Assembly: GCA_963846335.1 (NCBI GenBank)
Contig: CAWJVS010000020.1
Coordinates: 30,238 to 94,237, forward strand
Origin: an uncultured Bacteroidales bacterium
GTDB lineage: Bacteria; Bacteroidota; Bacteroidia; Bacteroidales; VadinHA17
DNA: 64,000 nucleotides
Reading direction: 5' to 3'
Shown here: piece after piece, positions 1 through 50,349 of the stretch
Layout: each line of letters begins with the position of its first letter
How positions within the stretch are numbered: position 1 is the stretch's first letter
Program-made: the position numbers and the translations under genes
The notes under the pieces: model-generated
Database searches by the model: none
Seen by the model: only the letters and a program-made list of their open reading frames with translations
What the model was told of the DNA's origin: nothing

Positions 1-56
1 TATATGAGGGTGCATCACAATTCATCAAGTCAGTTGAAAACCTATTAACCTGAGAA

Positions 57-5423: not shown

Positions 5424-5432
5424 TTATCAGCC

Positions 5433-11236: not shown

Positions 11237-11381
11237 ATACCTGTTTGTTTAAAATACACCAATAATTTAAGCTATTTACTGAATGAGTGAGATGGACCGT
11301 AATGTTTCTTTATGCAAAAATAAAAAAATTACATATTAATCAATTTAATGTGATTACAGATTAAGATATTTTTGACAGAAT

Positions 11382-11810: not shown

Positions 11811-11827
11811 TCAGAGTATAATTTTAT

Positions 11828-14423: not shown

Positions 14424-14547
14424 ATCGACAATCAGATTACCTTTTGGTGTCCTGAATATTTTAACTGGCTTTATCTCCTGTATTTTTCTGACAGGAGCAC
14501 CTTCGGAAGCTATGAGGTTACTGTTACTGTAATTCCCAATAATTGCA

Positions 14548-15507: not shown

Positions 15508-15597
15508 GGTTAGAAAAAATGTCTGAATAAAAAAACTCTAAAAATTGAATTTCATTCCTGAAAGTTCTTAAATTGCGATTCAGTCAAATTTCAAGAA

Positions 15598-16626: not shown

Positions 16627-16631
16627 ATATT

Positions 16632-16952
16632 ATGGAAACAAAAAAGTTTGCTTTTAAAATGAAACTATTGCCCGGTTGCAGGGAGGAATACAGGAAACGT
16701 CATAGTGAGATATGGCCAGAACTGGTAAAACTCCTTAAAGATGAAGGTATTGGCAATTACTCTATTTTCCTGGATGAAGAGACTAATATTTTATTTGCGT
16801 ATCAGGAACAGTCAGGTTCAGGATCATCACAGGACCTGGGACAAACAGAAATAGTAAAAAAATGGTGGAAATATATGGCCGACATTATGGAAACCAATCC
16901 CGACAATTCACCGGTCTCCACTCCGCTCGATCAGGTATTTTATATGAAATAG
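16632..16952 (+). CDS. rhaM: L-rhamnose mutarotase
   Basis: 106 aa. Y.KRH.EIWPEL...L...GI.NYSIF matches the RhaM/YiiL family. Confidence 0.85.
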   Translation: METKKFAFKMKLLPGCREEYRKRHSEIWPELVKLLKDEGIGNYSIFLDEETNILFAYQEQSGSGSSQDLGQTEIVKKWWKYMADIMETNPDNSPVSTPLDQVFYMK

Positions 16953-17070
16953 GGCCGGGGGTCAGGAATTCTCCTGTGGGCTTATTTTTTGATGAAAGCA
17001 GGTTATACCGGAGAAAAATATCAATAAGTAAAAAGCTGAATTTTAGAATAACTATAAAACAATATTTCGT

Positions 17071-23308: not shown

Positions 23309-23341
23309 GATCTGACAAATGACTCCATGTTAATCCGGCAC

Positions 23342-23349
23342 CAAATGTA
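23342..23349 (-). promoter_or_regulatory. Candidate Bacteroidetes -7 box (TACATTTG on the minus strand) for the CotH gene
   Basis: Exact match to TAnnTTTG, 34 nt upstream of the ATG at 23308. No well-spaced TTTG -33 element was found. Confidence 0.35.
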
Positions 23350-23410
23350 CATAAAATTTAATTATATCGCAGGAGTGTATCAATGTGTAAAATTTGGGAG
23401 AATTTAATAT

Positions 23411-23418
23411 TATATTTG
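23411..23418 (+). promoter_or_regulatory. Candidate Bacteroidetes -7 box (TATATTTG) for the LTD-VTC-DUF4956-DUF2490 operon
   Basis: Exact TAnnTTTG match 46 nt upstream of the ATG at 23464. A TTTG at 23393-23396 is spaced only 14 nt, shorter than the usual 19-21 nt. Confidence 0.4.
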
Positions 23419-23420
23419 TG

Positions 23421-23438
23421 ACAGATTTTAAAATCTGT
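23421..23438. promoter_or_regulatory. Perfect 18-bp palindrome ACAGATTTTAAAATCTGT (candidate operator or 5'-UTR hairpin)
   Basis: Read directly. It starts 3 nt after the -7 box and lies 26 nt before the LTD lipoprotein ATG. Confidence 0.45.
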
Positions 23439-23463
23439 AAAATAATATTCCTGCTGGCATACT

Positions 23464-23994
23464 ATGGTATTCAAGACAACGGTAAAAAGGAAAATCCTGC
23501 TGCTATTTCTCCTGGTTCTGGCTACACAACCGGGATGCAAAAAACCTCCGGAACCGGTATCCGGCGATATAATAATAAATGAGCTACTCCCGGTAAATAC
23601 TTCGATCGCTCCTGACCAGGATGGTGAATATGATGACTGGATTGAATTATATAATCTGTCCGGTTCGGCAAAAGATATTTCAGGTTTTTTTCTTTCAGAT
23701 AACAAGGATCATTTCTCGAAATGGGAATTTCCTTCGGGAACATCAATTCCCGGGAATGGATATCTCATTATCTGGGCTGATGATGATAGTGCGCAGATCG
23801 GTCTTCATACAAATTTCAAGCTATCTTCGCTCGGCGAAGAGGTGTTGCTTTCAACTCCGGATGGCACTCTTCTGGACAAAGTCATTTATCCGGGACAGAG
23901 CCTTGAATTGTCATTCTCCAGAAATCCTGACGGTACTGGTGCCTTCATTTGGCAAACACCTACATTCAACAGTTCCAACAATATACCGGAATAG
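23464..23994 (+). CDS. Lamin-tail-domain (LTD) lipoprotein
   Basis: 176 aa. The leader ends LATQPGC (lipobox-like Cys). IIINELLPVN...DDWIELYNLSGSAKDISGFFLSD...GYLIIWADDD matches LTD. Confidence 0.75.
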   Translation: MVFKTTVKRKILLLFLLVLATQPGCKKPPEPVSGDIIINELLPVNTSIAPDQDGEYDDWIELYNLSGSAKDISGFFLSDNKDHFSKWEFPSGTSIPGNGYLIIWADDDSAQIGLHTNFKLSSLGEEVLLSTPDGTLLDKVIYPGQSLELSFSRNPDGTGAFIWQTPTFNSSNNIPE

Positions 23995-24049
23995 AAAATG
24001 GATGCGTTTACTTATGATCTGACGCAACTATTTAATCTAAACAACACCG

Positions 24050-24832
24050 GTGTTTAGCATCATGCAGAATAGCGATATAGAAAGCGAATTAAGCAAATTA
24101 GGTTCCGTCAGCCTTGATGCAATTTCTGATGTCAGGTTAATGAACAGGATTGAAATAAAATACGTGTTTACCTGTTGTAAGCTGCCTGATCTGCTATGTC
24201 TGCTGAATAATCATTATCAGGTGCTTGAAATAAGCAATATGAGGATCCTTCCTTATTTTACAACTTACTTTGATACACCGGATTATCTGTTCTATAACCA
24301 GCATGTAAGAGGCGAATATGACAGGCATAAGATAAGGTATAGAAAATATGAGGTTTCAAAAGAATCATTTCTCGAAATTAAAAAGAAGACGAATAAAGGG
24401 AGAACCATTAAATGGCGAATAGAAAATAAACTCCCGGCTGCCTCCTTCGATTCAGAAGCCACCGCCTTTATCGGAAAATATCTGCCGGTAAATTCAACTC
24501 TCATCAGGCCTTCCCTGGTAAGTACTTTTACCCGCATAACACTGGCAGGGATCGAACGTAAAGAAAGAATGACTATCGATTTCAATATCTCCTTTTCAGA
24601 TCCTGAAAAATCACGGATGTTATCACTTCCTCATCTTACAATAGTTGAACTGAAAAAAGAAGCATTATCAGATTCATCAGAGCTAAAAAGTCTCCTCAGG
24701 CATCTCAATATATATCCAACAGCATTCAGTAAATACTGTGTCGGGAGCGCACTTCTGAATGACTCTCTCAAGAAGAATATGATCAAACCTAAGCTATTAT
24801 TACTTAACAAATTGGAAAATGAATACACTTGA
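24050..24832 (+). CDS. VTC-domain (polyphosphate-polymerase-like, triphosphate tunnel) protein
   Basis: 260 aa. NRIEIKYVF at the N-terminus, RYRKYE, LEIKKK and TIVELK strands resemble bacterial VTC/CYTH-like tunnel proteins. The likely true start is the ATG at 24062. Confidence 0.6.
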   Translation: MFSIMQNSDIESELSKLGSVSLDAISDVRLMNRIEIKYVFTCCKLPDLLCLLNNHYQVLEISNMRILPYFTTYFDTPDYLFYNQHVRGEYDRHKIRYRKYEVSKESFLEIKKKTNKGRTIKWRIENKLPAASFDSEATAFIGKYLPVNSTLIRPSLVSTFTRITLAGIERKERMTIDFNISFSDPEKSRMLSLPHLTIVELKKEALSDSSELKSLLRHLNIYPTAFSKYCVGSALLNDSLKKNMIKPKLLLLNKLENEYT

Positions 24833-25511
24833 TATTATATCAACTGACAAAACAGCACTGTCCGGAATTGAATTCATCGACTGGGCTAATCTTCTCGAGC
24901 TGATCGGCCGTTTTGCCCTGAACCTCATCGTAATTCTTATTCTTGTAAGATGGTTTTATTTTTCAACCACCAGGCGGAAAGATTTTCTTTTCACCTATAT
25001 CCTTATTTCAAGTATTGTTTTCTTGCTGTGCTTCCTGCTGGAAAATGTTATGCTTCAGATTGGATTTGCTCTCGGGCTCTTTGCAATTTTCGGGATCATT
25101 CGCTACCGGACACATGCTATTCCGATCAAGGAGATGACTTACCTGTTTCTCATCATCGGAATCTCGGTGATAAATGCCCTCGCCAATACAGCCAGTATCA
25201 GTGAAATTATTTTTACCAACCTGATTATTATCTTTATTACCTATGGCCTCGAAAAGAAGTGGCTGCTGAGACACGAATCCTCAAAAAGCATAATTTACGA
25301 AAAGATCAACCTTATCAGAACTGAACATCATCAAGAACTTATAGAAGATCTTCAGATAAGGACAGGTATCAGGAAGATCAGCAGAATTGAAATAGGTGAG
25401 GTGGATTTTCTGAGAGATATTTGTCGCATTACGATATTTTTTGAAACCTCTGACAGGATGGAGAATGTTTCCTACCAGGTGGGCCATAAAATAGATGATG
25501 ATGATGATTAG
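24819..25511 (+). CDS. Membrane protein, DUF4956-like
   Basis: 230 aa with 4-5 TM segments followed by a soluble tail. Overlaps the VTC gene by 14 nt. The family assignment is from memory of the VTC-DUF4956 pairing and is not verified. Confidence 0.5.
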   Translation: MNTLDIISTDKTALSGIEFIDWANLLELIGRFALNLIVILILVRWFYFSTTRRKDFLFTYILISSIVFLLCFLLENVMLQIGFALGLFAIFGIIRYRTHAIPIKEMTYLFLIIGISVINALANTASISEIIFTNLIIIFITYGLEKKWLLRHESSKSIIYEKINLIRTEHHQELIEDLQIRTGIRKISRIEIGEVDFLRDICRITIFFETSDRMENVSYQVGHKIDDDDD

Positions 25512-26172
25512 ATATTATGTTTTCTTCTTTTTGCTGCTTGCAATTGCCAGTGCAGTTTACAGTCAGGACACCGATTTTGGGCTCTGGTATGAGGTGAAAG
25601 CAGAAAAATCATTAAATAAAAAGTTCGAAATCACCGGATCTGTAATGGTAAGGACTTTTGAGGATGCTTCAATAATAGAAGAGGCATTCACTGAAATAGG
25701 TGCTTCATACAGACTGAACAAATATATCGGATTTGCCTTATCTTACAGGATCGGCAATTATCTTGAGGATGATGATCTGTATCATATAAGGCACAAATGG
25801 TTCGGCGATATAAAAGGATCTCTTCCTGCAGGCCAGTTTGTCTTTTCTGCCCGGTTAAGGCTCCAGATGATTGCAAGGACATATATTGAAGATGAGAAAG
25901 ATGACAGAGCAGAATACGATGGCAGGCTAAGATTAAAGGCAGTTTATAAAATCCCTGACTTCCCGGTAAATCCGTATCTGAGTTTCGAGACTTTCAGCCC
26001 GGTTTTCAGAAACGAAGGTCGCCTGATTGACAAAAGCAGAAGTGCAGTCGGACTGGAATTCAAAATAACCAGCAAGCACTATCTTGAAACTGAATATGTC
26101 TATCAGAGAGATACTTATCCCAATCTGTCGATTTTAAATATCATCTCCCTGAGCTATACATTCAAGTTTTAA
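25495..26172 (+). CDS. Putative outer-membrane beta-barrel protein, DUF2490-like
   Basis: 225 aa with a signal peptide. Alternating-hydrophobic strands end in the aromatic terminus LSYTFKF. Overlaps the upstream gene by 17 nt. Confidence 0.5.
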   Translation: MMMMIRYYVFFFLLLAIASAVYSQDTDFGLWYEVKAEKSLNKKFEITGSVMVRTFEDASIIEEAFTEIGASYRLNKYIGFALSYRIGNYLEDDDLYHIRHKWFGDIKGSLPAGQFVFSARLRLQMIARTYIEDEKDDRAEYDGRLRLKAVYKIPDFPVNPYLSFETFSPVFRNEGRLIDKSRSAVGLEFKITSKHYLETEYVYQRDTYPNLSILNIISLSYTFKF

Positions 26173-26174
26173 TA

Positions 26175-29100
26175 TTACTCTTTCTTAAGGCTTGCAGTCA
26201 GTGAACTGCCGGTCACAGATCCCAGGGAAAAGAAGAGAGCTGCAAGACCTGTGCAAAAGATTATAATAACCATTGAAATAAGATAGATCCACGGTACATC
26301 GGAGCTGTTTTTCAATGAGGGGAGCGTTGCTATGATAGCAGGAATAACTCCGGCACTCATCCCTGCCATAAGGATAATTATCTGTTCCTGAAGTATCAAT
26401 TTTCTGATTTTCTTTACGTTAAAACCAGTAGCAAGCATCAGGGCAAATTCTCTCCTGCGGTAATTGTAGTTTCTTAATAGCACAAAGCCGAGTCCTGCAA
26501 TCCCGGTTACCATGCCCAGTGCGCCAAAGACTCCAAATACGGAGAGATAGGTGTTGGTTACTTCATAAAAAGAGGCGAGTCTGTCGTTTGTCCTTTCCAC
26601 TTTGACTCCAAAATTTTCTAACCTTTCATTCAGAGTATTGCCATAGAGATCTGCAAGATCTTTATTGCCATCGACAAGAAGAATTGAACTCCCCGGAACA
26701 GACGGAAAATACTTTCTGAAATTATCCAGACCTATGACAACATAACCCTGGAAAACAGATGATTTCAGACCGGCAGCAATTATAATATTCAATTTCTGAC
26801 CATTTTCCGATCTCATCATCAGAGTGTCCCCGGGTTTGATTTTCAGACCCCACTGCAGAACTGTCTGATCTGCAATTCCATAAATTGTATTGCTGGTCGG
26901 AGGAAAACTCAAAAACTGCCATGGATTTTCAACATTCCCGGCTTCAATGGCTTTAGCGAATGAAAATGATCCCCGTGAGATAAATTCATTCTGGTCCACA
27001 CCCAGCAGGGGAGGAACTTTTATATGATTGAGATTAAGGCAACTGGCATCGTTTCCTGCATATCTTTTCATCTGCACAAACTGCATCCCTGTCAACTGTT
27101 CTTCATCAAGGGCCAGGGTGGTTCTTCCCGTGTTTGTTTCCAGATCAGCCCTTACAGGTATTGTATTGTCGCACCAGAACAGAAAACCTCCGGTTCCGCC
27201 TGTAGGTTTCAGATGGCTGCTGTCAAAACTCATCCTGTTCGCACCTGTAATAAAAACTGCAAAAATGCCTGCTGCAATGAACAGAATGGGAGTGACTGCA
27301 TGAGATGGGTAATATGAATAGTAGAGCCTCGATAACTTAAGCGTCGGATCAGCTTTTTCTGAAAAGAGATTAAAGGAACTTATGAAGTATTGCCTCCATA
27401 AAAGAATAATGACGATAAGCAGGAGAGTGCCTGCGGAAAAACTCAGTACCACTTCCTGCTCTTTCAGGATGTTAGAAAGGATGTATAAACCTGCTGAGAT
27501 GAAAAATGAGATCAGCAGAAGAATCAGATTCAGGAGAGGGGAAGACTTTGTATCTAAAGCTTTTTTCTTACGATTAAGATTCTTAAGATGAAGCCTGATT
27601 TTGAACTCCAGAAAAACTATTGCAATAATTATCGTAATCAAAAAGCCTGCAAGTATTGGCAAAAGGCTGAAAAAAGTACTGAGGGTATCTGTCTGGACTG
27701 CTCCCTGCCAGACCGTATTAAGCAGTTTAATAATAAGAAAGCTTACCAGCATACCGGCAAATGAGCCGAGAAATGATCCTGTTAGCGATATAAAGCCTGA
27801 TTCAGCGAGCAATAGTTGTTTAATCCATCCGGTCCTGAATCCCAGAGCAAAAAACGTCCTGATCTGAATGTGTTTTGAATCAAGGTATGTCGTAACTGCA
27901 AATGACAATAAAACAACCGAAGCCAGGATAAGGAAGAATCCAAGACTGAGGAAAAGAGAGCTGAAATCGACACTCTCGCTGGCTGCCAGCAGTGAATCGC
28001 TGTACAGATCCGTGATTATGAATCCATTACTGGCAGGATCAAGATACCCTGCAAGTCTCCCTGAAATCTCCTGTGCACTTATGGATCCGGGAAAACGAAT
28101 CGCTGTTGCAGGTCCGAAATTATTTCCCCATAATTCGACTCCCTTGTCATAATTAATAAATGCCTTGGGAGTTCCTCTGAACCTATTCCAGTATTGCTCA
28201 TCTTTCTGGCGGATGTCATTGAGTTTTATTGTAACGCCTGCATCCCACTCAGAACAGGACTCGCTTCCTGATATACCCGGAAAGTCCGGCATCAGAAGGG
28301 AATCTCCCCATATTCCGTTCATTTCGACAATCCGGCTCACACGGAATCTGCTCTTTCTTTCAATGAGCTTGCTAAGTGAATCAGGTGCATACCATACCAT
28401 TTCAACAGTGTCACCCTGATTGATGTCCAGATCCCCGGCAAGCCATCTGTTAACAATGACTTCGTTACCGGTGACAATGTCAGGATATAGTGAATGCGGT
28501 AAGGCTGCAATAAATGAATATGGTGTTGATCTGGCCCCATGGGAAATCCTGTTTCCAAGATAAGTTATTACCGGCGCAGCAGGGGGAATATAGTTTTTTA
28601 CCTCGCTTACAAGAGAATTTTCAAGAAATATTTTGTCTGATCTCAATTCATATCCGCCGGTCTTTTCAAGAGGTATTATTTTCAGGCCGATATCTGAAGG
28701 TTTCATATGATTTCTTAAAGCATCATATGCCTTTTCCGTGGTAATATTATTATTAATCTCAAACAGTAACCTGTTGATCTTAATCTGTTTACCTGAGGTT
28801 CCAAAAATATCTGAAATATTGATAAATATATTTTCAGGTACAACCTGGCTTATTGATAGTGAGAAATCAGCTGATTCGGCAGGCTTCAATATTGAGCCTA
28901 CTTTTACCACCAGCGACCTTCCTTCCTCATTTGCCGGAGCAAAAGGAGCATCAGCTGGTATATCGCTGTAATCGTTAAACCGGAGAATCAGTTCATCACC
29001 TTTTTTCAGGTCCAGAGAAACAGCAATCTTTTCATTTACTGCTACCTCTCCCGGATTGATTTTTATTGCTTCTTTGCCATGAAAGCTGAAAAAATCCCCG

Positions 29101-29441
29101 TTAATGGCGTATATATGAGTATTGGGTATTGCTTTCTGGGTACTTAGATTCTGGCAAAGTCCGTTGATTTCGAGTAACCCTGTGCAATTTATCCGGGCGC
29201 TGTCCCTTAATCTGTCTGCCAGGGACAGATCAAAAAACCTGGTTCCTGAACTGATCAGAATGCCCGTATTTCCAAGACGTTCAGTGGCAGATTTTTTCAG
29301 ACTTGCCCTTACTGACCATCCGGTAAGGAGAGAGCCTGTAATTACGGCTGATAATAACGCGACAATAAGAATCTGATATAAGACAGGCTTTTTATAAAAC
29401 CTGGCAGACCTGATCACTATTTTTACTATACCCGGCACCAT
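26175..29441 (-). CDS. ABC transporter permease, MacB/FtsX-type with two FtsX domains and large extracytoplasmic domains
   Basis: 1088 aa. FtsX-like 4-TM bundles at about aa 500-620 and 960-1088, each preceded by a long soluble region. Confidence 0.8.
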   Translation of the reverse strand: MVPGIVKIVIRSARFYKKPVLYQILIVALLSAVITGSLLTGWSVRASLKKSATERLGNTGILISSGTRFFDLSLADRLRDSARINCTGLLEINGLCQNLSTQKAIPNTHIYAINGDFFSFHGKEAIKINPGEVAVNEKIAVSLDLKKGDELILRFNDYSDIPADAPFAPANEEGRSLVVKVGSILKPAESADFSLSISQVVPENIFINISDIFGTSGKQIKINRLLFEINNNITTEKAYDALRNHMKPSDIGLKIIPLEKTGGYELRSDKIFLENSLVSEVKNYIPPAAPVITYLGNRISHGARSTPYSFIAALPHSLYPDIVTGNEVIVNRWLAGDLDINQGDTVEMVWYAPDSLSKLIERKSRFRVSRIVEMNGIWGDSLLMPDFPGISGSESCSEWDAGVTIKLNDIRQKDEQYWNRFRGTPKAFINYDKGVELWGNNFGPATAIRFPGSISAQEISGRLAGYLDPASNGFIITDLYSDSLLAASESVDFSSLFLSLGFFLILASVVLLSFAVTTYLDSKHIQIRTFFALGFRTGWIKQLLLAESGFISLTGSFLGSFAGMLVSFLIIKLLNTVWQGAVQTDTLSTFFSLLPILAGFLITIIIAIVFLEFKIRLHLKNLNRKKKALDTKSSPLLNLILLLISFFISAGLYILSNILKEQEVVLSFSAGTLLLIVIILLWRQYFISSFNLFSEKADPTLKLSRLYYSYYPSHAVTPILFIAAGIFAVFITGANRMSFDSSHLKPTGGTGGFLFWCDNTIPVRADLETNTGRTTLALDEEQLTGMQFVQMKRYAGNDASCLNLNHIKVPPLLGVDQNEFISRGSFSFAKAIEAGNVENPWQFLSFPPTSNTIYGIADQTVLQWGLKIKPGDTLMMRSENGQKLNIIIAAGLKSSVFQGYVVIGLDNFRKYFPSVPGSSILLVDGNKDLADLYGNTLNERLENFGVKVERTNDRLASFYEVTNTYLSVFGVFGALGMVTGIAGLGFVLLRNYNYRRREFALMLATGFNVKKIRKLILQEQIIILMAGMSAGVIPAIIATLPSLKNSSDVPWIYLISMVIIIFCTGLAALFFSLGSVTGSSLTASLKKE

Positions 29442-31856: not shown

Positions 31857-32611
31857 AAAAGTTTACCTGAATTAAGGTTCAGACAATACTTTGTGCCATT
31901 ATAATCACCGAAATAAGCCAGTCCGGATGACAGGGCAGGAGAGGAGGCAATATAAACTCCGATTTCAATTGTATCTGTTTCACGGCCGGTTAGCGGATCA
32001 ACAATTCTGATAATGCCATCGCAACCTCCGAATACTATCCTGCCGCCAGATATAGAAGGTGTTCCGTTAACATAATTTTCAGTCTCAACTCTCCAGAGAG
32101 GTTTTCCGGTTTCGGGATCGACACAATGCAGGAAATAGTCATAACTTCCGACTACAATCCCTGCTTTGTTGCCTGATGTCCAGACATTTGCTGAACCCGC
32201 TATCTGGTTATCAGTAGCATATGACCACAATAATTTTCCCGAAATCCTGTCAATGGCATAAAGAACCCCCTCATTTGTTCCGAAAATTACTTTTTTCCCA
32301 AAGACCATGGGGGCGGCATCGACAGGGCTGCCTGCCTCATATTTCCATTTTATTTTCCCGTCTGTACCTACAGCCGTAACACTCCCCTTTTCATTGCCAA
32401 AATAGATGGTCTCATCACTAATCACAGGTGATGATTTTGTTCTTGTACCGGTAGAAATGCTCCAGATAAGAGATGGTGAAGAAGGGAGTTCGGAATCAGA
32501 TTTTCCGGTGAGATCAGCTTTCCCGCGGAATAATGGCCATTCTGATTTACTTTCCTGGGCATGGGTACCAAGCAGGGTAAAAAGGCATATTATTATTGTT
32601 AAATATCTCAT
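31730..32611 (-). CDS. PQQ-like (BamB-like) beta-propeller repeat protein with signal peptide, N-terminal fragment
   Basis: Signal peptide, then WPLFRGKADLTG, and repeated G..(I/L)(K/L)W motifs (GKIKWKY, GKLLWSY, GKPLWRV, GKLLWKI). Confidence 0.75.
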   Translation of the reverse strand: MRYLTIIICLFTLLGTHAQESKSEWPLFRGKADLTGKSDSELPSSPSLIWSISTGTRTKSSPVISDETIYFGNEKGSVTAVGTDGKIKWKYEAGSPVDAAPMVFGKKVIFGTNEGVLYAIDRISGKLLWSYATDNQIAGSANVWTSGNKAGIVVGSYDYFLHCVDPETGKPLWRVETENYVNGTPSISGGRIVFGGCDGIIRIVDPLTGRETDTIEIGVYIASSPALSSGLAYFGDYNGTKYCLNLNSGKLLWKIPSREESGAILGIPAIGSSAVVLGSEDKFIYCLIRKMGN

Positions 32612-32621
32612 CTGTGGTGTT

Positions 32622-32963
32622 TTACTTTAGCTTACTCAATGCACCGGTAGGACAGATATCAATAACCTCCCCGGTCCTGGTTTTAAGTATATTATCAAAT
32701 TCTTCAGTGAGCGGTTCGGAAATAATTGTGACAAATCCCCTGTTGATAAAGCAAAGTGCAGGTTCTTCACTTGATTCTTCACATAATCTTACACATAATC
32801 CGCATTTAATGCATTTTGCATTCTCAAAAACTAATCCTGTCCTGTAATTTATCTTTTTAACAATAGGGGCGTTGACAAGTTTTCCCCTTGGGTTTTTAAT
32901 TGCAAATTCATCCGCGAGATCCCGTAACCTGCAGTCGCCTGCGGCGCGGCAGTCACAATGCAT
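32622..32963 (-). CDS. Fe-S cluster protein, C-terminal fragment (4Fe-4S ferredoxin-type motifs)
   Basis: CMHCDCRAAGDC, CIKCGLCVRLC and ICPTGAL. The frame is open upstream to RYPFEDQAAAEAEN. Confidence 0.65.
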   Translation of the reverse strand: MHCDCRAAGDCRLRDLADEFAIKNPRGKLVNAPIVKKINYRTGLVFENAKCIKCGLCVRLCEESSEEPALCFINRGFVTIISEPLTEEFDNILKTRTGEVIDICPTGALSKLK

Positions 32964-32994
32964 GCAGTTTTCAGCTTCAGCGGCTGCCTGGTCT

Positions 32995-33702
32995 TCAAAC
33001 GGATATCTCCCTGAAGCGCACTGTATTGTCGCTGCACTCTTTTAGCCATTCAGCCTGTTCTGCAGGTTCTAATTTGCCGATCAGAGAGTTGAATCTTCCT
33101 GACGCTTTACGATTTTTTCGTTCCGCTTTGTCTTCCGTACTGCTGTCTGCAGGCCTGGAATCCGGGTCACTGGATATCCTGGCAGCATAAATAAACAATT
33201 TCATATTCCTTATTGAGACAGGAATATCTATCTTCTTCCTGCGGCACGCATTTTCGCAATAACCTGCACATTTTGTGCAGGCAATATCTCCGGAGGTTAC
33301 TTCTGCCATTGTAAGATCAGCTGCGCTGGCAAAATCTTTGCCTGCAAGGTGCCTGTTAAAAAGCGGTATATTATATCCGGCAGGACAGACAATACGGCAG
33401 GGAGCCTCACATTCAGCACGATGTTCGGAAAAGAGCAGTTCCAGCGATTTGCGTCTGAGTGCCACAACTTCATCTGAAGATACATCTATGTCCATGCCAT
33501 CCTGAACATATACGGAACAGGATGCGAAAAAGCTTTTTGTGTGGTTGTCTTTCACCATGCAAACCATGCACGATGTATAATGAGGCAAGCCATCATTATG
33601 ACAGAGTGTGGGTATAATAAATCCTGCATTTCTGGCAGCATACAGAATGGTTGATCCTTCCCGGACATCTAATTCTTTGTTATTGATCTTTATTCTGGCC
33701 AT
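32995..33702 (-). CDS. NuoG-N-terminal-like Fe-S protein (2Fe-2S plus GltD-type Fe-S region), N-terminal fragment
   Basis: MARIKINNKELDVREGSTILYAARNAGFIIPTLCH...SCMVCMV...ASC is a 2Fe-2S Fer2_4-like domain. HRAECEAPCRIVCPAGYNIP...CTKCAGYCENAC resembles the GltD/DPD N-terminal 4Fe-4S region. A frameshift near 33000 links it to 32622..32963. No catalytic domain follows. Confidence 0.65.
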   Translation of the reverse strand: MARIKINNKELDVREGSTILYAARNAGFIIPTLCHNDGLPHYTSCMVCMVKDNHTKSFFASCSVYVQDGMDIDVSSDEVVALRRKSLELLFSEHRAECEAPCRIVCPAGYNIPLFNRHLAGKDFASAADLTMAEVTSGDIACTKCAGYCENACRRKKIDIPVSIRNMKLFIYAARISSDPDSRPADSSTEDKAERKNRKASGRFNSLIGKLEPAEQAEWLKECSDNTVRFREISV

Positions 33703-36103
33703 TTACATTCACAATTTCTATTGCTTTTTCAGGACATACAATTCTGCAATTATCGCATTTGGTGCAGATTGCCTGGTCGATCTCATGCTTCTCGTAAGGT
33801 TTGAAAGGAATGGCATTGACCGGACACTCCTGGGAGCATTTGGTACAACCGGTACAATTATCAGCCACAACATATTTTATAAGTTCGCGGCATTTCTTGG
33901 CCGGGCATATACCCTTTGTGTGCATTTCATATTCTTCCCTGAAATATCTCAGTCCGGTAAGAATAGGGTTGGGGGCTGTTTTCCCAAGCCCGCACAGACT
34001 TCCGCTCCTGACCGAATTGCAGAGTATCTCAAGTTCATCAAGATCGGCAAGAGTGGCCTTTCCCTCACTAAGCCTCGTTACAATATTAAGCATGTGTTTG
34101 GTGCCAATCCTGCAGAAGGTACATTTACCGCACGACTGTTTATGTGTGAATGTCAGAAAATATTTTGCCATATCCACCATGCAATCAGTGTCATCGAGCA
34201 CCACCATGCCTCCTGATCCCATCATTGCACCCATTTTTGCCAGCTCCTCATAATCAATTTCGGTATCTGCCTTTGATGCAGGTATGCATCCGCCTGACGG
34301 GCCTCCTATCTGGACAGCCTTAAATTTTCTGCCATCAGCTATTCCATCACCTATTTTTTCAACTATCTGTCGTATTGTAATCCCCATCGGAACTTCAATC
34401 AGACCTCCTTTTGAAATTTTTCCGGCAAGTGCGAATACTTTGGTTCCCTTGCTCAGATCAGTTCCTATTGAATGGAAGGATTCCGCACCATTGGATATGA
34501 TCCATGGTACCAGTGATAGAGTCTCTACATTATTTACAAGAGTAGGCTGTCCCTTTAATCCTTTTATGGCAGGGTAGGGAGGACGCATTTTCGGAGTTCC
34601 ACGCTTCCCCTCGAGTGATGAAATAAGAGCGGTCTCTTCGCCGCATACAAATGCGCCGGCTCCTTCAAAAACCGAGATATTGAATGAAAAATCAGTTCCC
34701 ATTACCTTATCTCCCAGAATGCCGTTACTGTAACATTTTTCCAGTGCATTCCGTATCCGGGAGACTGCCAGCGGATATTCAGCCCTTATATAAAAGATTC
34801 CTTCAGTTGCCCTGGTGGCAAAGCCTGCTATCATCAATCCTTCTATGATCCTGAAGGGAAAAGATTCCAGCAGCATCCTGTCCATGAAAGCTCCGGGATC
34901 ACCCTCGTCTCCGTTGCAGACTACATACTTGTGATCCCCTTCTGAACCCCAGGATATTCTCCATTTCCGGCCGGTAGGAAATCCTGCACCACCTCTTCCG
35001 CGCAACCCGCTCCGGGTAATAATTTCAATTATCCTGTCCTGGTCCAATTCATTAAGACATTTCCTAAGGGCGGAAAAACCACCAAGCATACAATATTCAT
35101 CATAGGAATCAGGAGTCAGTGTACCACTGTCAGTTGTTGCTATATGAATCTGGTAATCAAGGAAATTATTGAGATATCTCTCCCTGTGCTCGTCAGTGAC
35201 GTTTATCTGACTTGAAAGCTTATCATCCGAAAGAAATGTATCTACAAGGTCTAAAATGTTATGTTTTAGACGTTTGTTCAGAGACCTTGGTTTGATATGC
35301 TTAAGCAGGATTTCCTCCACCTCATGTCTGCGGACATTTGTATATCTGAAACTAACATTGTCTTTTGTAACTATTTCAAGAAGAGGCGTTTGATTGCAAA
35401 CTCCCACGCATCCCACCGGTTTCATGCTGATATTCAGGTCAAATCTTCCTTTGATAGCCACTATCTCCGAAAGGATCTCTTTGCTTCCTCCGGCAACACA
35501 ACAGGATCCCAGTCCAATCCTTACCTCAGCATCAATGTCATTTCCGGGTGTTTCTCCGGCAGTTTCCCTGTTGTCAATGCCAGTTTTAAGGAAATCATTA
35601 ATTATTTCATCTACCTGGGTTGGTTTTACGTGCCCGTAAGTCTTCCCGTCAATCTGAACAACCGGAGCAAGCGTGCAACAGCCGAGACAGGCCACTTCTT
35701 CAATTGAAAAAAGATTGTCGGGTGAGGCATTTCGGGTGTCATCAATTTTCAGAACTCTTTTGAATGCATCAGAGATAAGCGGTGCACCCTTTACATGGCA
35801 TGCAGTACCCGAGCATACCTTTATAGTGTGTCTGCCTGCAGGAATATGCCTGAACTGAGAATAGAAGGTTGATACCCCGGATATTTGTCCTGGTGTAATG
35901 TCGGTAACCTGACAGATATGCCTTAGCGCTTCAGACGGAAGATAGTTCAGCCTCTTCTGTACCTCCTGAAGGATCATAATTACCTTTTCAGGTTCCTTTC
36001 CTGTGAAGCTGACTACCTCATCAACAGCGCGGTTGATGTCTTCAACTGAGATCTGTTCGCAGTCACACCCGGTCTTTTCTTTATATGTTTCAGTCTGCTT
36101 CAA
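33680..36103 (-). CDS. Fused NuoE-like / thioredoxin-like 2Fe-2S / NuoF-like NADH-FMN flavoprotein with C-terminal 2x[4Fe-4S] ferredoxin domain
   Basis: 807 aa. NuoE part: VCSGTACHVKG...ACLGCC. HndB-like part: GSCCVAGG...CVGVC. NuoF part: GLRGRGGAGFPTGRKW, VCNGDEGDPGAFMDR, SCGKCTFCRIG. C-terminus: CTGCTKCSQECP and CTKCDNCRIVCP. Confidence 0.85.
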   Translation of the reverse strand: MKQTETYKEKTGCDCEQISVEDINRAVDEVVSFTGKEPEKVIMILQEVQKRLNYLPSEALRHICQVTDITPGQISGVSTFYSQFRHIPAGRHTIKVCSGTACHVKGAPLISDAFKRVLKIDDTRNASPDNLFSIEEVACLGCCTLAPVVQIDGKTYGHVKPTQVDEIINDFLKTGIDNRETAGETPGNDIDAEVRIGLGSCCVAGGSKEILSEIVAIKGRFDLNISMKPVGCVGVCNQTPLLEIVTKDNVSFRYTNVRRHEVEEILLKHIKPRSLNKRLKHNILDLVDTFLSDDKLSSQINVTDEHRERYLNNFLDYQIHIATTDSGTLTPDSYDEYCMLGGFSALRKCLNELDQDRIIEIITRSGLRGRGGAGFPTGRKWRISWGSEGDHKYVVCNGDEGDPGAFMDRMLLESFPFRIIEGLMIAGFATRATEGIFYIRAEYPLAVSRIRNALEKCYSNGILGDKVMGTDFSFNISVFEGAGAFVCGEETALISSLEGKRGTPKMRPPYPAIKGLKGQPTLVNNVETLSLVPWIISNGAESFHSIGTDLSKGTKVFALAGKISKGGLIEVPMGITIRQIVEKIGDGIADGRKFKAVQIGGPSGGCIPASKADTEIDYEELAKMGAMMGSGGMVVLDDTDCMVDMAKYFLTFTHKQSCGKCTFCRIGTKHMLNIVTRLSEGKATLADLDELEILCNSVRSGSLCGLGKTAPNPILTGLRYFREEYEMHTKGICPAKKCRELIKYVVADNCTGCTKCSQECPVNAIPFKPYEKHEIDQAICTKCDNCRIVCPEKAIEIVNVNGQNKDQ

Positions 36104-41272: not shown

Positions 41273-42238
41273 TTAATATTTCCTTGTGAAAACATAAAGT
41301 TTTGAATCAGCCGGATTGGCAGCATAAATGGTATTGCCATCTGAAGATGCCAGATCAAGCGGTATTGAAGGAACAAATTTATTTCTGGATGTAACAAATT
41401 CAATAAATTCTCCTGATTTACCAAGTATTTTGATCCTGTTTATCCCCTTTTCAGAGGTGATAAATCCTTCCGGGGTAATGATGAAGTGAGCAGGGTTGCA
41501 GCATCCGCAGAATGCACCCGGGGCCATTCCAGGTTCACCGAATGAACTCAGAAGCCGGCCTTCAAGTGATCTTGTCTCTATTCTCCTGTGACCCGTGTTT
41601 GCAACATATAAATTGTTTTCGTCAAGCGCCACATCAAAATAGGGGCTCGGGAGAATGAACTGTCCGTCACCCTGACCGACTATTTTTTCCACTCTTCCCT
41701 CTTTGTCGAGAATGACTATCATTTTGTTTCCGGCATCAGCATAAGCTACACGGTTATGATTTGAGGTCACCGATGTTATAAAGCTCTTATCCTCAAATGG
41801 CCCCCATTCATCTTCAATCCTGCCATTTCTGCCAATGACCAGTATCATTTCCATTGTGGAAGCAAAGACAGTATCGCCGGAATTTGACAGAGATGTAACA
41901 GGATAGGGTGTTTTAATGGACCATAACTTTGTAAGGCCTCTGTTATAGCATGTTACAAAAGAGTCTCCTGCTAAATAAACATTTCCTCCAGGTGAAACAG
42001 TAACCGCCTTAAGAGATCCTTCCGTAATGGATAGATCATCTGATACCTTCCATTTTTCCGGAAGACTGTCAGAGACAATAGTCCTGGCTGTATTTTTCTC
42101 AGTGCCGGCCGGCCTTGAGGTGTCAAATATGATATAGGCTATAAATACAACTAATATCAACACTGAAAAAAACGATGCAAATTTCTTGTTCATATCAATG
42201 AAATTTTCAAATGTCAAGGCATAACAGGTTTCTGGCAT
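41273..42238 (-). CDS. Membrane-anchored NHL-repeat (six-bladed propeller-like) protein
   Basis: The likely start is MNKKFASFF at 42193, which avoids overlap. One TM segment. NHL-like blades (NLYVANTGHRRIE, GPFEDKSFITSVT, GINRIKIL). Unusual FCGCCNP motif. Confidence 0.6.
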   Translation of the reverse strand: MPETCYALTFENFIDMNKKFASFFSVLILVVFIAYIIFDTSRPAGTEKNTARTIVSDSLPEKWKVSDDLSITEGSLKAVTVSPGGNVYLAGDSFVTCYNRGLTKLWSIKTPYPVTSLSNSGDTVFASTMEMILVIGRNGRIEDEWGPFEDKSFITSVTSNHNRVAYADAGNKMIVILDKEGRVEKIVGQGDGQFILPSPYFDVALDENNLYVANTGHRRIETRSLEGRLLSSFGEPGMAPGAFCGCCNPAHFIITPEGFITSEKGINRIKILGKSGEFIEFVTSRNKFVPSIPLDLASSDGNTIYAANPADSKLYVFTRKY

Positions 42239-43656: not shown

Positions 43657-44922
43657 TTATTTTCCGGCTTTTAATGAATACACGGCCAGGTATCCTCCAT
43701 GCCTTAAGAACAACCTGCCTTTATCAATAACAGGATAAGCCCAGTATGGGCCATTACCTTTTGTGACCTTGAATTCACTTACGACTTCCAGCTTTTCAGG
43801 TCCCGGCTTAACCAGTCCGACATTACCTTTCTTCTCCTCATAAAAATACAGCATTCCGTCAGCAGCTATCAGCGAACCCTTGTTGTACCAGTCAGTCTTC
43901 CACATTGTTTTGCCGGTTTTCCAGTCTACACACATCCATTTCCCATATGAACTTGATTCATAATTTGAACCATATACATAGTCGCCCAGAAGAACCGCTC
44001 CCCCGACATGCGGATCCAGGTCATTATTCCTCCATACAACTGAAGGTGCTGACCCGTCAGGATTTAGTTTCAGCTTGAGGGCAACTTTGTCATATCCGCT
44101 GGAAATAAATAAAAAACCGTCGCGGAATAGAGGAGTGTTAATATGGGCAAATCTCCACTCCGGTGCAGTACATTCAGCCATATAGTCGAATTTCCACTGT
44201 AATCTTCCGGTATTCGGATCAACCGCAAAGAGATATTTTGCTCCCAGAGTCACAATCAGCTTTTTGCCTCCGGACTCCACCAGAATTGGATTTACATATT
44301 GTGTGACATCATTTACAGAGGGAGTTTCCCATATGACACTTCCGTTATCAGCATTGAACGCCACCATTGCTGCAACTTTACCACCGGGTGTGGCAATTAC
44401 TTTATTCCCAACCACAAGCGGACATTCCGAAATACCAAAATCGGGTGTTACCCCCTTATATTTCGTTGAATAATTGACCGACCAGATAATTTTACCTTCT
44501 GTGCTTATGCAAACCAGATCACCCATTCCGCTTACCAGGAATATCCTTCCGTTTGACACTGTTCCGGTCCCCCTGCTGTCGGGATAGTTGCTGTCGGAGG
44601 CTTTCCCGTAAATTACCTCCCACTTTTTCCTTCCTTCCTGGGTAAACGCTGTTAAGACATCATTTACTCCGCGTCGGCCGGATATGTAAACAGCATCATC
44701 AGTTACTGTCACACTCGAATAACCGGTGCCTACATCAGTTGTTTCCCAAAGGAGTGCCGGACCTGAAGATGGCCAGGCTTTAAGCAATCCTGTCTCGGGA
44801 TAAATACCCGACCGGTCAGGTCCCAGCCAGCCATATTGTTTTTGTGCATTGATGACTGATGATGTAAGGATTATAAATGCGGCAATAATATATATTTTCT
44901 TCATATCCATCCGAACTGACAT
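43657..44922 (-). CDS. Secreted PQQ-like beta-propeller protein (first gene of the operon)
   Basis: The likely start is MKKIYII at 44904. Signal peptide, then WLGPDRSGIYPETGLLKAWPSSGPALLW. Paralog of 39929..41143. Confidence 0.75.
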   Translation of the reverse strand: MSVRMDMKKIYIIAAFIILTSSVINAQKQYGWLGPDRSGIYPETGLLKAWPSSGPALLWETTDVGTGYSSVTVTDDAVYISGRRGVNDVLTAFTQEGRKKWEVIYGKASDSNYPDSRGTGTVSNGRIFLVSGMGDLVCISTEGKIIWSVNYSTKYKGVTPDFGISECPLVVGNKVIATPGGKVAAMVAFNADNGSVIWETPSVNDVTQYVNPILVESGGKKLIVTLGAKYLFAVDPNTGRLQWKFDYMAECTAPEWRFAHINTPLFRDGFLFISSGYDKVALKLKLNPDGSAPSVVWRNNDLDPHVGGAVLLGDYVYGSNYESSSYGKWMCVDWKTGKTMWKTDWYNKGSLIAADGMLYFYEEKKGNVGLVKPGPEKLEVVSEFKVTKGNGPYWAYPVIDKGRLFLRHGGYLAVYSLKAGK

Positions 44923-45343: not shown

Positions 45344-45691
45344 ATGTGCGGAATTGTCGGAGTATTTGATCTGAAAGTCAACTATATGGATTTGAGGGAA
45401 AGTGTTCTTAAAATGTCAAAAAGAATCAGGCACCGCGGTCCTGACTGGTCAGGAATATTTTATTGTGAGAAGGCAATCCTTGCTCATGAGAGGTTATCGA
45501 TTGTTGATCCTCAGTCGGGGAAACAGCCTTTATACAGCAAGGATAAGAATCTTATTCTGACAATTAATGGTGAAATATACAATCATCAGGATATACGCAG
45601 GCGTTATGAAGAATCCTATGAATTTCTTACTCATTCCGATTGTGAAGTTATTCTGCCTCTCTATCGCGACAAAGGATCCTGCTTTTATTGA
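45344..45691 (+). CDS. asnB: Asparagine synthase (glutamine-hydrolysing), N-terminal fragment
   Basis: MCGIVGVFDL (Cys2 nucleophile), HRGPDWSG, HERLSIVD and NGEIYNH. It breaks after YRDKG (GGATCCT, near 45675). Confidence 0.9.
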   Translation: MCGIVGVFDLKVNYMDLRESVLKMSKRIRHRGPDWSGIFYCEKAILAHERLSIVDPQSGKQPLYSKDKNLILTINGEIYNHQDIRRRYEESYEFLTHSDCEVILPLYRDKGSCFY

Positions 45692-46997
45692 GGAATTGAA
45701 CGGGATTTTTGCCTTTGCCCTCTATGACAAAGAAAAAGACTGTTATTTCATTGCACGTGATCATATCGGGATAATTCCACTATATATGGGCTGGGATAAG
45801 TTTGGCAATTTCTATGTTGCATCGGAACTAAAGGCACTTGAAGGTGTTTGCAACAAGATAGAGGAATTTCTTCCAGGTCATTATCTGTACAGTAAGGATG
45901 GAGTCATGACCAGGTGGTATAAACGGGACTGGATGGAATATTCCGCAGTAGAGAATAATGAGACAAGCATTGAGGATCTGAAAATAGCCCTTGAAGCTGC
46001 CGTTCATCGTCAGCTCATGTCTGATGTTCCCTATGGAGTACTGCTTTCAGGTGGACTGGATTCATCGATTGTATCTGCAATTGCTAAAAAATTTGCACCG
46101 AGAAGGATTGAAACAGAAGACCAGACAGCAGCATGGTGGCCTCAGTTGCACTCCTTTGCAGTCGGACTTGAAGGTTCTCCTGACCTCGCTGCTGCAAGGA
46201 AGGTTGCAGATCACATCGGAACTATTCATCATGAAATTAATTTCACGGTACAGGAAGGTCTTGATGCAATCAGGGATGTCATCTATCATATCGAAACTTA
46301 TGATGTGACAACGATAAGGGCTTCAACACCCATGTATCTGCTTGCCAGGGTTATCAAATCGATGGGAGTAAAGATGGTTCTTTCGGGTGAAGGTGCTGAT
46401 GAAATTTTCGGCGGATACTTGTATTTCCATAAAGCACCTGATCCAAAAGCTTTTCATGAAGAGACTGTCAGGAAAATAAGTAAACTGCATCTCTACGACT
46501 GCCTGCGTGCAAATAAATCTCTTGCAGCATGGGGCGTGGAAGGACGGGTGCCTTTCCTTGACAAGGAATTCATGGATGTGGCTATGCGTCTGAATCCAAA
46601 AGACAAGATGATAAACAAGGAGAGAATGGAAAAATGGGTACTCAGAAAAGCTTTTGAGGATTACCTGCCTGCAAGTGTTGCCTGGAGGCAGAAAGAACAG
46701 TTTTCAGATGGCGTAGGTTATAACTGGATTGACACGCTTAGAGCTCTGGCAGCCAAAAAGGTGACTGATGAACAGCTGGCAAATGCCAAATACCGTTTCC
46801 CTATAAATCCTCCGATGTCCAAAGAAGAGTATTTTTACAGATCAATATTTTCTGAACACTTTCCTTCCGATTCCGCAGCATCATGTGTACCATCGGTTCC
46901 ATCAGTTGCATGCAGCACTCCTGAAGCAATTGCCTGGGATGCATCTTTCAAAAACATGATCGATCCCTCAGGACAGAGCAGTGAAAAGTGTTCATAA
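45567..46997 (+). CDS. asnB: Asparagine synthase, main fragment
   Basis: PAFIEELNGIFAFALYD and SGGLDSS (PP-loop). The tail DPSG then shifts: the true end RAVKSVHNDSYK* is in the +1 frame and stops at 47013, implying an extra C near 46972. Confidence 0.9.
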   Translation: MVKYTIIRIYAGVMKNPMNFLLIPIVKLFCLSIATKDPAFIEELNGIFAFALYDKEKDCYFIARDHIGIIPLYMGWDKFGNFYVASELKALEGVCNKIEEFLPGHYLYSKDGVMTRWYKRDWMEYSAVENNETSIEDLKIALEAAVHRQLMSDVPYGVLLSGGLDSSIVSAIAKKFAPRRIETEDQTAAWWPQLHSFAVGLEGSPDLAAARKVADHIGTIHHEINFTVQEGLDAIRDVIYHIETYDVTTIRASTPMYLLARVIKSMGVKMVLSGEGADEIFGGYLYFHKAPDPKAFHEETVRKISKLHLYDCLRANKSLAAWGVEGRVPFLDKEFMDVAMRLNPKDKMINKERMEKWVLRKAFEDYLPASVAWRQKEQFSDGVGYNWIDTLRALAAKKVTDEQLANAKYRFPINPPMSKEEYFYRSIFSEHFPSDSAASCVPSVPSVACSTPEAIAWDASFKNMIDPSGQSSEKCS

Positions 46998-48671: not shown

Positions 48672-48689
48672 ACAAATAATCAGAAAGAA

Positions 48690-50229: not shown

Positions 50230-50349
50230 GTCTCCTGTGCAGCATTCAGGGCTTTAGCTGAATGCAGTTATCAGTATTGTACGCTCTTTGCTCACAACAA
50301 GCCCAGCAACCAGAAACACCCCAACATCCTATGGATCTCAACTGAGGAT

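Follow-up and report, generated by a model that had tools for sequence, protein, structure and literature searches.

To our knowledge, no family of bifurcating enzymes is less well understood than the Bfu-type enzymes, whose characterised members all are soluble and act on H2, formate, NADPH or aldehydes. According to the survey by Schut (2022, PMC9304861), the family is defined by an invariant BfuBC core whose B2–B5 sites are missing from non-bifurcating homologues, and membrane-bound Mbh-Bfu and Nuo-Bfu complexes are predicted. The solved structures closest to both proteins discussed here are those of NfnABC and StnABC (PDB IDs 9n5u, 9bov and 8oh5; PMC11829005, PMC10482914). In this work, we analysed a stretch of 64,000 nucleotides (nt) from an uncultured Bacteroidales bacterium (GenBank assembly GCA_963846335.1, contig CAWJVS010000020.1, positions 30,238 to 94,237), hereafter the window, and in particular its positions 32,622–36,103, which encode a fusion of BfuC and BfuB (BfuCB) and an iron-sulfur (Fe-S) partner, BfuA. 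We consider it reasonably probable that this pair forms a Bfu-type NADH/ferredoxin core linked to a periplasmic redox reaction through a membrane assembly whose genes share its operon.

BfuCB, a protein of 807 amino acids (aa), is encoded by a single open reading frame (ORF) with TTG as the start codon. The first-pass annotation, made by a model from the letters of the window, had described it as a HydB/HydC-style NuoE-NuoF fusion containing, in this order, a NuoE-like 2Fe-2S domain, a thioredoxin-like 2Fe-2S domain, the NuoF flavin mononucleotide (FMN)/NADH site, the N3 cluster motif and a C-terminal 2x[4Fe-4S] ferredoxin domain. Matches to Pfam and NCBIfam profiles upheld all five elements and their order (Table 1), and the quoted FMN/NADH and N3 motifs are located at residues 369 (GRGGAGFPTGRKW), 397 (NGDEGDPGAF) and 657 (SCGKCTFCRIG). 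The relationship to HydB was also borne out by the best solved relatives, NfnB, StnB and HydB. The top PDB sequence matches are the B subunits of bifurcating Bfu-type enzymes (E 2e-197 to 5e-163): NfnB 9n5u_B is the best of them (E 2e-197, aligned over residues 194–801), followed by 8oh5_B, which is StnB of Sporomusa ovata (PMC10482914), 9bov_B, the NiFe-HydB 7t2r_B and HydB of 8a6t, 7q4v and 7p5h. Complex I NuoF is a far weaker match (~E 1e-100). When aligned with NfnB, StnB and HydB, the FMN/NADH motifs of BfuCB lined up residue for residue and showed no degeneration. The NuoF equivalog TIGR01959 reached 454 bits where 558.65 are required, none of the NuoE models passed its cutoff, and no nuo genes were found near BfuCB in the window; because of these scores and the lack of nuo genes, we do not regard the protein as a complex I module.

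The B2 site, which holds Zn or a 2Fe-2S cluster, is formed in A. mobile HydB by C438, C476, H525, C531 and C536; its His is absent from non-bifurcating homologues, and the equivalent of C476 is Thr in most Bfu proteins (Schut 2022, PMC9304861). In a residue-level alignment of 7t2r_B with BfuCB, these residues correspond to C641, S679, H728, C733 and C738, respectively. Among 74 orthologues, C641, H728, C733 and C738 are 100% conserved, as are the C1 ligands C97, C102, C139 and C143. The B1 (N3) [4Fe-4S] ligands C658, C661, C664 and C704, the B5 ligands C201, C202, C232 and C236 (the metal of B5 could be Fe-S or Zn) and the eight Cys of the B3/B4 domain (98–100%) are conserved as well, and for C1, B5, B1, B2, B3 and B4 taken together the range is 98–100%. 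In short, BfuCB has the residues that have been put forward as markers of bifurcating enzymes, with S679 standing at the Cys/Thr position. Since the B2–B5 sites occur in BfuCB and are absent from non-bifurcating homologues, we count them as a Bfu signature. Judged by its sequence, the 807-aa protein is a Bfu core with BfuC fused N-terminally to BfuB, and every feature that could be compared in this way agrees. Such a colinear C-B fusion is not unique, as ~20 clusters at 50% identity were found in an all-against-all search of 1.84 billion representatives. A neighbour-joining tree of the fused and unfused relatives was star-like, and no strong claims are based on it.

The gene of the second protein is interrupted in the deposited sequence. 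As sequenced, BfuA consists of a 235-aa ORF (32995–33702) and a 113-aa ORF (32622–32963) in different frames. The gene is 1081 nt long in the window vs 1080 nt in L001 (related loci are designated here by L and a number), an 88%-identical orthologue, and the two diverge at a T-run, where the window has 'gtttgaagacc' and L001 'gttt-ccgctc'. The reading frame agrees with that of L001 through 'REISV' and then runs on in the +1 frame as '...EDQAAAEAENCMHCDC'. With the extra base removed, a 359-aa protein is obtained that is colinear with the single-ORF orthologues of 355–379 aa; the ~360-aa Fe-S partner described by the first-pass annotation is thus recovered after a correction of 1 nt, and in the uncorrected sequence there are two ORFs instead. 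The ATG of the 113-aa ORF comes after the conserved ligand Cys of the C-M-H-C-D-C motif, which is encoded in the +1 frame, and hence the split product would be unable to bind this cluster. The part of BfuA 3' of the frameshift is 91–93% identical to L001/L003, and the N-terminal part 79–82%. A 2.5-kb part of the strongly conserved operon holds three frameshifts, since the neighbouring propeller and glycosyltransferase genes are likewise split, and so are unrelated sulfatase genes in the window. Similar splits are found in L001, L004, L029 and L078, whose records have 'contig_N' names, and are rare in k141_/NODE_ loci. The 'contig_N' naming may be a sign of long-read assembly. The BfuA frameshift is probably an assembly indel, probably originating from long reads, and might, with less probability, be a recent real mutation. 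As for the sulfatase-like genes themselves, they are broken into overlapping or adjacent ORFs at 47149–48671 (159+196+137 aa) and 52023–53290 (145+270 aa), and the region 48671–50350 has no ORF of at least 120 aa, which fits many assembly indels.

Corrected BfuA contains Fer2_4, Fer4_20 (GltD/DPD-type) and Fer4_Nqo3 domains (Pfam). Its best PDB relatives are the large Nfn/Stn subunits 9bov_A (1178 aa, presumably NfnA of C. saccharolyticus, judged from its size), 8oh5_C (StnC) and 9n5u_A; BfuA aligns with residues ~4–180 and ~542–671 of 9bov_A/8oh5_C and skips the GltD domain. In StnC, residues 102–565 form a GltD-like flavin adenine dinucleotide (FAD)/NADPH domain that also carries two [4Fe-4S] clusters (PMC10482914), and in NfnABC electrons follow the path FAD-A7-A6-A3-A2-A1-B1 (PMC11829005). 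The cluster ligands of BfuA, assigned by alignment position, are listed in Table 1; they are present in 35 of 35 orthologues of the short class and in nearly all of the long class (30–31 of 31). No flavin/NADPH domain was detected in BfuA, as PRK12814 aligned only at positions 6–173 and 570–635 of 657 (188 bits vs a cutoff of 916), and neither a Pyr_redox match nor a C-terminal Fdh/NuoG-like domain was found. A catalytic domain of hydrogenase, formate dehydrogenase (FDH) or GltD type was likewise absent from BfuA, from the other frames (three-frame translation of 32600–33720) and from the 64-kb window, where 20 other proteins were scanned against Pfam. By alignment, BfuA is a chain of clusters, one [2Fe-2S] and about four [4Fe-4S], equivalent to the A1-A2-A3-A6-A7 path of NfnABC without the flavin, and it descends from NfnA/StnC-type subunits through internal deletion of the GltD flavin/NADPH domains, not through truncation. 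The earlier statement that the partner stops before any catalytic domain was therefore right about the missing domain and wrong about its place: an internal flavin domain has been lost and the clusters on both sides of it are kept. Four Cys of BfuA belong to the short class only: C142 (35/35), C223 (32/35), C317 (35/35) and C307 (22/35). At C142, C223, C307 and C317, the residues of the FAD-containing class are, as a set, Gly, Ser, Thr and Thr (Gly at C142); the Cys of the short class may constitute an additional or re-ligated Fe-S site in place of the flavin.

At first pass, the pair had been regarded as an orphan in which the Fe-S protein was the only adjacent partner of BfuCB, and this view had to be abandoned. 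Membrane and periplasmic redox genes overlap or abut the pair on both sides, in an operon of 13 minus-strand genes (44922 to 26175) connected by overlaps or short gaps, five of which encode periplasmic PQQ_2-type beta-propellers. The gene of a NapH-like protein overlaps that of an anchored propeller by 11 nt, the latter overlaps BfuCB by 4 nt, BfuCB and BfuA share 23 nt, and 10 nt separate BfuA from the secreted propeller gene that comes next. When one genome per species was scanned, 80 loci were obtained, the ORFs of which were then compared by profile searches; gene-presence counts include only loci with enough flank, and L083–L085 are short contigs without usable context. The same 13-gene order is maintained across L001–L082, that is, in ~80 species assigned to Bacteroidales, Marinilabiliaceae, Prolixibacteraceae, Saprospiraceae, Victivallales, Planctomycetes, Firestonebacteria, Spirochaetales and Armatimonadetes, living in sediments, peat, groundwater and digesters. 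Two cultured Prolixibacteraceae, Mariniphaga sediminis SY21 and Tangfeifania diversioriginum DSM 27063, are among the carriers. BfuA is present in 68 of 68 loci, the NapH-like protein in 63 of 63, the twin-arginine translocation (Tat) signal ferredoxin in 62 of 62, the anchored propeller in 70 of 71, the 482-aa propeller in 52 of 53 and the NHL protein in 55 of 57; no further conserved gene families were found around the 13 genes in the related loci. Divergent fusions, L090 and L091 (44–49% identity), sit in the same type of cluster.

Gene fusions link several of these parts. In L089, the NapH-like protein (residues 19–429) and the anchored propeller (462–1003) are located on one polypeptide, whose gene overlaps BfuCB. 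In L090, the anchor of the propeller, comprising transmembrane helix (TM) 1, a loop and TM2, is found at the N-terminus of a 987-aa BfuCB (BLASTP E 7e-11), and there is no separate anchored propeller at this locus. The end of TM2 in the window's 564-aa propeller is predicted to be cytoplasmic, which, as far as predicted topology allows, fits the anchor-BfuCB fusion; the propeller itself is predicted to be periplasmic. The fusions support a putative physical complex of the NapH-like protein, the membrane propeller and BfuCB, the last of which, like BfuA, is predicted from hydropathy to be soluble. The L090 locus (9001–15494) additionally encodes a secreted 606-aa protein with a propeller, two CxxCH haem motifs and faint CCP/MauG matches, which may point to haem or quinoprotein-type chemistry in the periplasm, with MauG/MauM/MauN as a parallel.

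The NapH-like protein has ~6–7 TM helices, two CX3CP and two CxxCxxCxxxCP motifs, and its Cys are conserved. It does not belong to the NapH equivalogs (TIGR02163 NapH/MauN 63 bits vs 213; PRK09477 54 vs 234), and no nap genes accompany it. The Tat ferredoxin has 17 conserved Cys, enough for about four [4Fe-4S] clusters, in a NapG/MauM-like layout. PDB sequence searches with the NapH-like, Tat-ferredoxin and NHL proteins returned generic ferredoxin or NHL matches only. On the periplasmic side, 111 positions of the 482-aa propeller are shared at 93% identity or more across phyla, among them polar loops such as K159-R160-N161-H162; as the most conserved periplasmic component, this propeller appears to be the best candidate for a catalytic subunit. 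Its AlphaFold2 (AF2) model is of moderate confidence (pLDDT 76.6), and a Foldseek search against the PDB retrieved only BamB and tetrathionate hydrolase at 13–15% identity, a generic eight-bladed fold. Its Cys residues C140, C187, C247 and C479 were considered as metal ligands and rejected, as they lie within the repeated 'xxCxDxxTGxxxW' blade motif. In the NHL protein, the conserved Met16 is the likely start, and an invariant G245-C246-C247-N248-P249 segment with vicinal Cys is kept across phyla.

From this arrangement, we infer the path and direction of the electrons and the occurrence of bifurcation or confurcation as follows. In the cytoplasm, the Bfu core would bind FMN and exchange hydride with NAD(H) and single electrons with ferredoxin. 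In place of a soluble catalytic domain, its third redox partner would be the membrane assembly, made up of the NapH-like polyferredoxin, the three-helix-anchored propeller, the Tat-exported four-cluster ferredoxin and the periplasmic beta-propeller and NHL proteins. The 4Fe-4S motifs of NapH lie on the cytoplasmic side, and the end of the BfuA wire would exchange electrons, in one direction or the other, with the NapH-like protein at its cytoplasmic clusters. The electrons would then enter or cross the membrane and reach the Tat ferredoxin, which could distribute them to the periplasmic propeller or NHL proteins, and the cytoplasmic NADH and ferredoxin pools would thereby be coupled to a periplasmic redox reaction. 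NapH-like proteins have been described as modular transmembrane electron-transfer units for extracytosolic reductases or oxidases, and their partners include the propeller enzymes NirS and ExaA (Meheust 2021, PMC8238504). What carries the proposal is the domain and ligand content of the pair, its descent from Nfn/Stn-type enzymes, the conservation of the operon and the fusions among the NapH-like protein, the membrane propeller and BfuCB.

The related loci also present BfuA in a graded series. At L086 (9001–13474) and L087, a fused BfuCB (768 aa, 49% identical) is accompanied by a 710-aa, full NfnA-like, GltD-containing subunit that scores 765 bits to PRK12814 over profile positions 5–631. This two-gene unit has neither NapH nor propeller genes and is probably a soluble two-subunit Nfn-Bfu transhydrogenase. 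Cluster members at 53–63% identity have partners of 464–549 aa (~520), in which a GxGxxG FAD-type Rossmann domain is kept and the NADPH domain is lost. In the clade of the window (at least 69% identity, plus L036), the partners are 355–379 aa long and the flavin domain is gone. Finally, a divergent high-GC cluster (L088: 2420–10722, BfuCB 45% identical) encodes the Tat ferredoxin, the NapH-like protein, the anchored propeller and BfuCB, directly followed by the next propeller, and there is no BfuA gene at this locus. Running from full flavoprotein through FAD-only protein and bare Fe-S wire to a locus that lacks BfuA, the series amounts to a natural experiment on what an A subunit is required for.

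Several observations weigh against a Bfu core coupled to the periplasm. A third substrate of mid potential (~-400 mV), required for true bifurcation, was not identified. No recognisable redox cofactor site was found in the periplasmic proteins of the operon, the model of the 482-aa propeller giving generic propeller matches only. The route of electrons across the membrane in NapH-type proteins is itself unsettled. Position 679 of BfuCB is Ser vs Cys or Thr in the characterised enzymes, BfuA is frameshifted in the sequence of the window itself, and the glycosyltransferase (GT), ABC and FtsX genes, for which NCBIfam scans gave generic families only, raise the possibility that some of the cluster contributes to envelope assembly and not to redox chemistry. 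A rival reading is a plain non-bifurcating NADH diaphorase that feeds the NapH-like protein and then the quinone pool or the periplasm, its Bfu-specific domains being structural relics. The FMN/NADH site of BfuCB is intact, NapH homologues are tied to quinol chemistry (PMC8238504), a low-potential third substrate did not come to light, and the input side is evolutionarily plastic, as the flavin domain has been lost and L088 lacks even BfuA. However, relics should decay, and the B2 site, B5 and the ferredoxin-docking B3/B4 domain are 98–100% conserved across phyla; the characterised non-bifurcating homologues do without B2–B5 (PMC9304861), and we consider such a diaphorase unlikely.

The soluble orphan NuoE-NuoF/Fe-S pair of the first-pass annotation agrees with the predicted solubility of BfuCB and BfuA and with the lack of a catalytic domain in the partner and in the 64-kb window. 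It is contradicted by the tight operon, with its overlaps of 4 nt (membrane propeller) and 23 nt (BfuA) and the 10-nt gap to the secreted propeller, by the constant company of the NapH-like protein (63/63) and the Tat ferredoxin (62/62), by the fusions to membrane components and by the absence of hydrogenase and FDH within 10 kb in ~80 loci, and is very improbable in our view. The frameshift, the missing FAD and NADPH domains and the two split neighbouring genes might also be taken as marks of a decaying Nfn/Stn-type transhydrogenase, the pair being non-functional in this organism. Yet 35 species encode the flavin-less BfuA in one uninterrupted ORF and conserve all of its cluster ligands, identity to L001/L003 is higher 3' of the shift than N-terminally, and the splits in the unrelated sulfatase genes and in the other 'contig_N' loci of metagenome-assembled genomes (MAGs) point to assembly indels. 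We find decay extremely hard to believe, and the idea of a truncated GltD remnant, raised at first pass, holds in the evolutionary sense only, for the protein has not decayed and its ligands are intact in those 35 species.

Within the proposal of a Bfu core coupled to the periplasm, we tentatively suggest a further step, which is possible but doubtful: that the operon encodes a new class of membrane-bound Bfu complex, common among anaerobic Bacteroidota and present in at least five further phyla, in which a bifurcating or confurcating core is tethered to a NapH/NapG-like conduit, propeller or NHL proteins of no known cofactor carry out a new redox activity in the periplasm, and BfuA has been progressively stripped from an NfnA-type flavoprotein to an Fe-S wire. 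If true, the reach of bifurcation would be widened to chemistry in the periplasm by a conserved Bfu enzyme connected to an iron-sulfur path through the membrane. NapH-type proteins, too, would gain a defined partner for their cytoplasmic clusters, the role of which has long been unclear. The presence of the cluster in cultured strains makes the question directly testable.

Beyond the operon, genes for a CotH-kinase/LTD protein, VTC, DUF4956 and DUF2490 flank it at 20666–26172; some of this group is found beside the cluster again, though in close relatives alone (DUF2490 in 17 loci, DUF4956-like in 5, VTC-like in 4), and so is a divergent asparagine synthase gene at 45567–46997 (14 loci). A rhamnose utilisation block unrelated to the operon (alpha-L-rhamnosidase, RhaT symporter and RhaA isomerase) occupies 12747–18294. 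At 3484–6278, a lysine-2,3-aminomutase-like radical SAM gene and two D-Ala-D-Ala-ligase-like ATP-grasp genes may constitute a small beta-amino-acid or peptide modification cluster.

Table 1. Genes of the operon in the window, in order of transcription, with the assigned domains and cluster sites of BfuCB and BfuA.
Feature	Position	Strand	Evidence
Secreted PQQ_2-type beta-propeller, 421 aa, first operon gene	43657..44922	minus	Pfam, synteny
Membrane-anchored 8-bladed beta-propeller, 482 aa	42207..43655	minus	Conservation, AF2 model, Foldseek; 52/53 loci
Membrane-anchored NHL-repeat protein, 321 aa (maximal ORF)	41273..42238	minus	PDB NHL matches, NCBIfam ScyF-like NHL; 55/57 loci
Secreted PQQ_2-type beta-propeller, 404 aa	39929..41143	minus	Pfam; N-terminal signal-like sequence
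Tat-signal (SRRDFV) ferredoxin, 194 aa	39098..39682	minus	Pfam Fer4 families; conserved R11, R12; 62/62 loci
NapH-like membrane polyferredoxin, 425 aa	37784..39061	minus	PF12801 Fer4_5 E 1e-14; hydropathy; 63/63 loci
Membrane-anchored PQQ_2-type beta-propeller, 564 aa, 3 predicted TM helices	36100..37794	minus	PF13360, hydropathy; 70/71 loci
BfuC-BfuB fusion (BfuCB), 807 aa	33680..36103	minus	Pfam, NCBIfam, PDB matches; ligand conservation in 74 orthologues
BfuCB, NuoE-like [2Fe-2S] C1 domain	residues ~20-175		PF01257 E 2.9e-46, residues 30-170 (Pfam)
BfuCB, thioredoxin-like 2Fe-2S B5 domain	residues ~193-280		NCBIfam fdxn_Clost E 4e-11, residues 202-279
BfuCB, NuoF FMN/NAD(H) core, B1 cluster and B2 (Cys3His) site	residues ~330-740		Nuo51 FMN domain PF01512 E 4e-42; NuoF 4Fe-4S region PF10589 E 2.5e-30
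BfuCB, C-terminal B3/B4 2x[4Fe-4S] domain	residues ~745-800		Fer4_7/Fer4_21 matches, residues 745-796
Reduced BfuA iron-sulfur wire, 359 aa once corrected	32622..33702	minus	Three-frame translation, DNA alignment, Pfam, PDB, ligands
Extra base splitting BfuA, T-run 'gttt'	~32990-33000	minus	Alignment to L001
BfuA, A1 [2Fe-2S]	C34, C45, C48, C62		Conserved in 66/66 orthologues
BfuA, A6/A7 (NfnL-type pair)	C98, C102, C106, C145, C149, C153		Conserved in 65-66/66 orthologues
BfuA, A2	C246, C249, C251, C257		Conserved in 66/66 orthologues
BfuA, A3	C297, C300, C303, C350		Conserved in 65-66/66 orthologues
Secreted PQQ_2-type beta-propeller, split 293 + 121 aa; orthologues ~372 aa	31491..32611	minus	Pfam, synteny
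GT4 glycosyltransferase, split 134 + 299 aa; orthologues ~431 aa	30144..31440	minus	Pfam, synteny
LolD/MacB-type ABC ATPase, 224 aa	29465..30139	minus	TIGR02211 221 bits, below cutoff; synteny
Duplicated FtsX-type permease, 1088 aa, ~10 TM helices, last gene of conserved block	26175..29441	minus	Synteny

No description of the 13-gene cluster was found in full-text literature searches or in a targeted reading of the Bfu survey (PMC9304861), and NapH-like, Tat-ferredoxin or propeller partners of Bfu are mentioned neither in that survey nor in any paper retrieved by the searches. By every feature that can be judged from sequence, the pair is assigned to the Bfu family, and its relation to the known members may be described as follows. 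With the HydABC/HndABCD [FeFe]-hydrogenases it shares the BC core and the order of HndA-, HndB- and HndC-like parts, and BfuCB matches HydB of T. kivui, A. woodii and T. maritima at E 1e-172 to 5e-163 (PDB). Unlike in these enzymes, the H-cluster domain is absent from the partner, the other frames, the window and 10 kb of flank in ~80 loci, and the NCBIfam profile FeFe_hydrog_A6 aligns only via its N-terminal Fe-S part (positions 2–102 and 99–207 of 571); because it has no H-cluster, the pair is not a hydrogenase. As in the Type 2/3 Bfu enzymes (Wor-Bfu, HytD-type; PMC9304861), of which the 247-aa NuoG-like subunit 9mqx_A is an example, BfuA is only an Fe-S conduit, with extra subunits to handle the third substrate. 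Here, however, the extra components are a NapH-like protein, a Tat ferredoxin and beta-propellers, and not the Wor, Mbh or Nuo modules of the Type 2/3, Mbh-Bfu and Nuo-Bfu complexes.

The closest solved relatives, NfnABC and StnABC, have in common with the pair the FMN/NAD site, C1, B1, B2 (Zn-type), B3/B4, A1-A2-A3 and the two NfnL/GltD-type clusters; BfuCB scores 661/652/649 bits against their B subunits and BfuA 144/139/130 bits against the large ones. In contrast to them, BfuA of the window has neither the FAD/NADPH (GltD) nor the C-terminal Fdh/NuoG-like domain, B and C are fused, and the pair is encoded alongside membrane and periplasmic proteins, not in a soluble three-gene unit; because the flavin/NADPH domain is absent, the pair is not an Nfn/Stn enzyme. 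The membrane side of the cluster, in turn, resembles NapGH, NosGH and MauMN (PMC8238504) in combining a NapH-family protein, with CX3CP and cytoplasmic 4Fe-4S motifs, and a Tat-exported multi-cluster ferredoxin, and its association with periplasmic propellers resembles that of NapH-like modules with NirS, ExaA and the methylamine dehydrogenase (MADH) heavy subunit. It differs from NapGH, NosGH and MauMN in having no FMN-binding domain, ApbE or Nap/Nos/Mau catalytic genes, in a NapH-like protein that scores far below the NapH cutoff (63 vs 213 bits), and in the coupling, unique to this cluster, of that protein to a cytoplasmic Bfu core.

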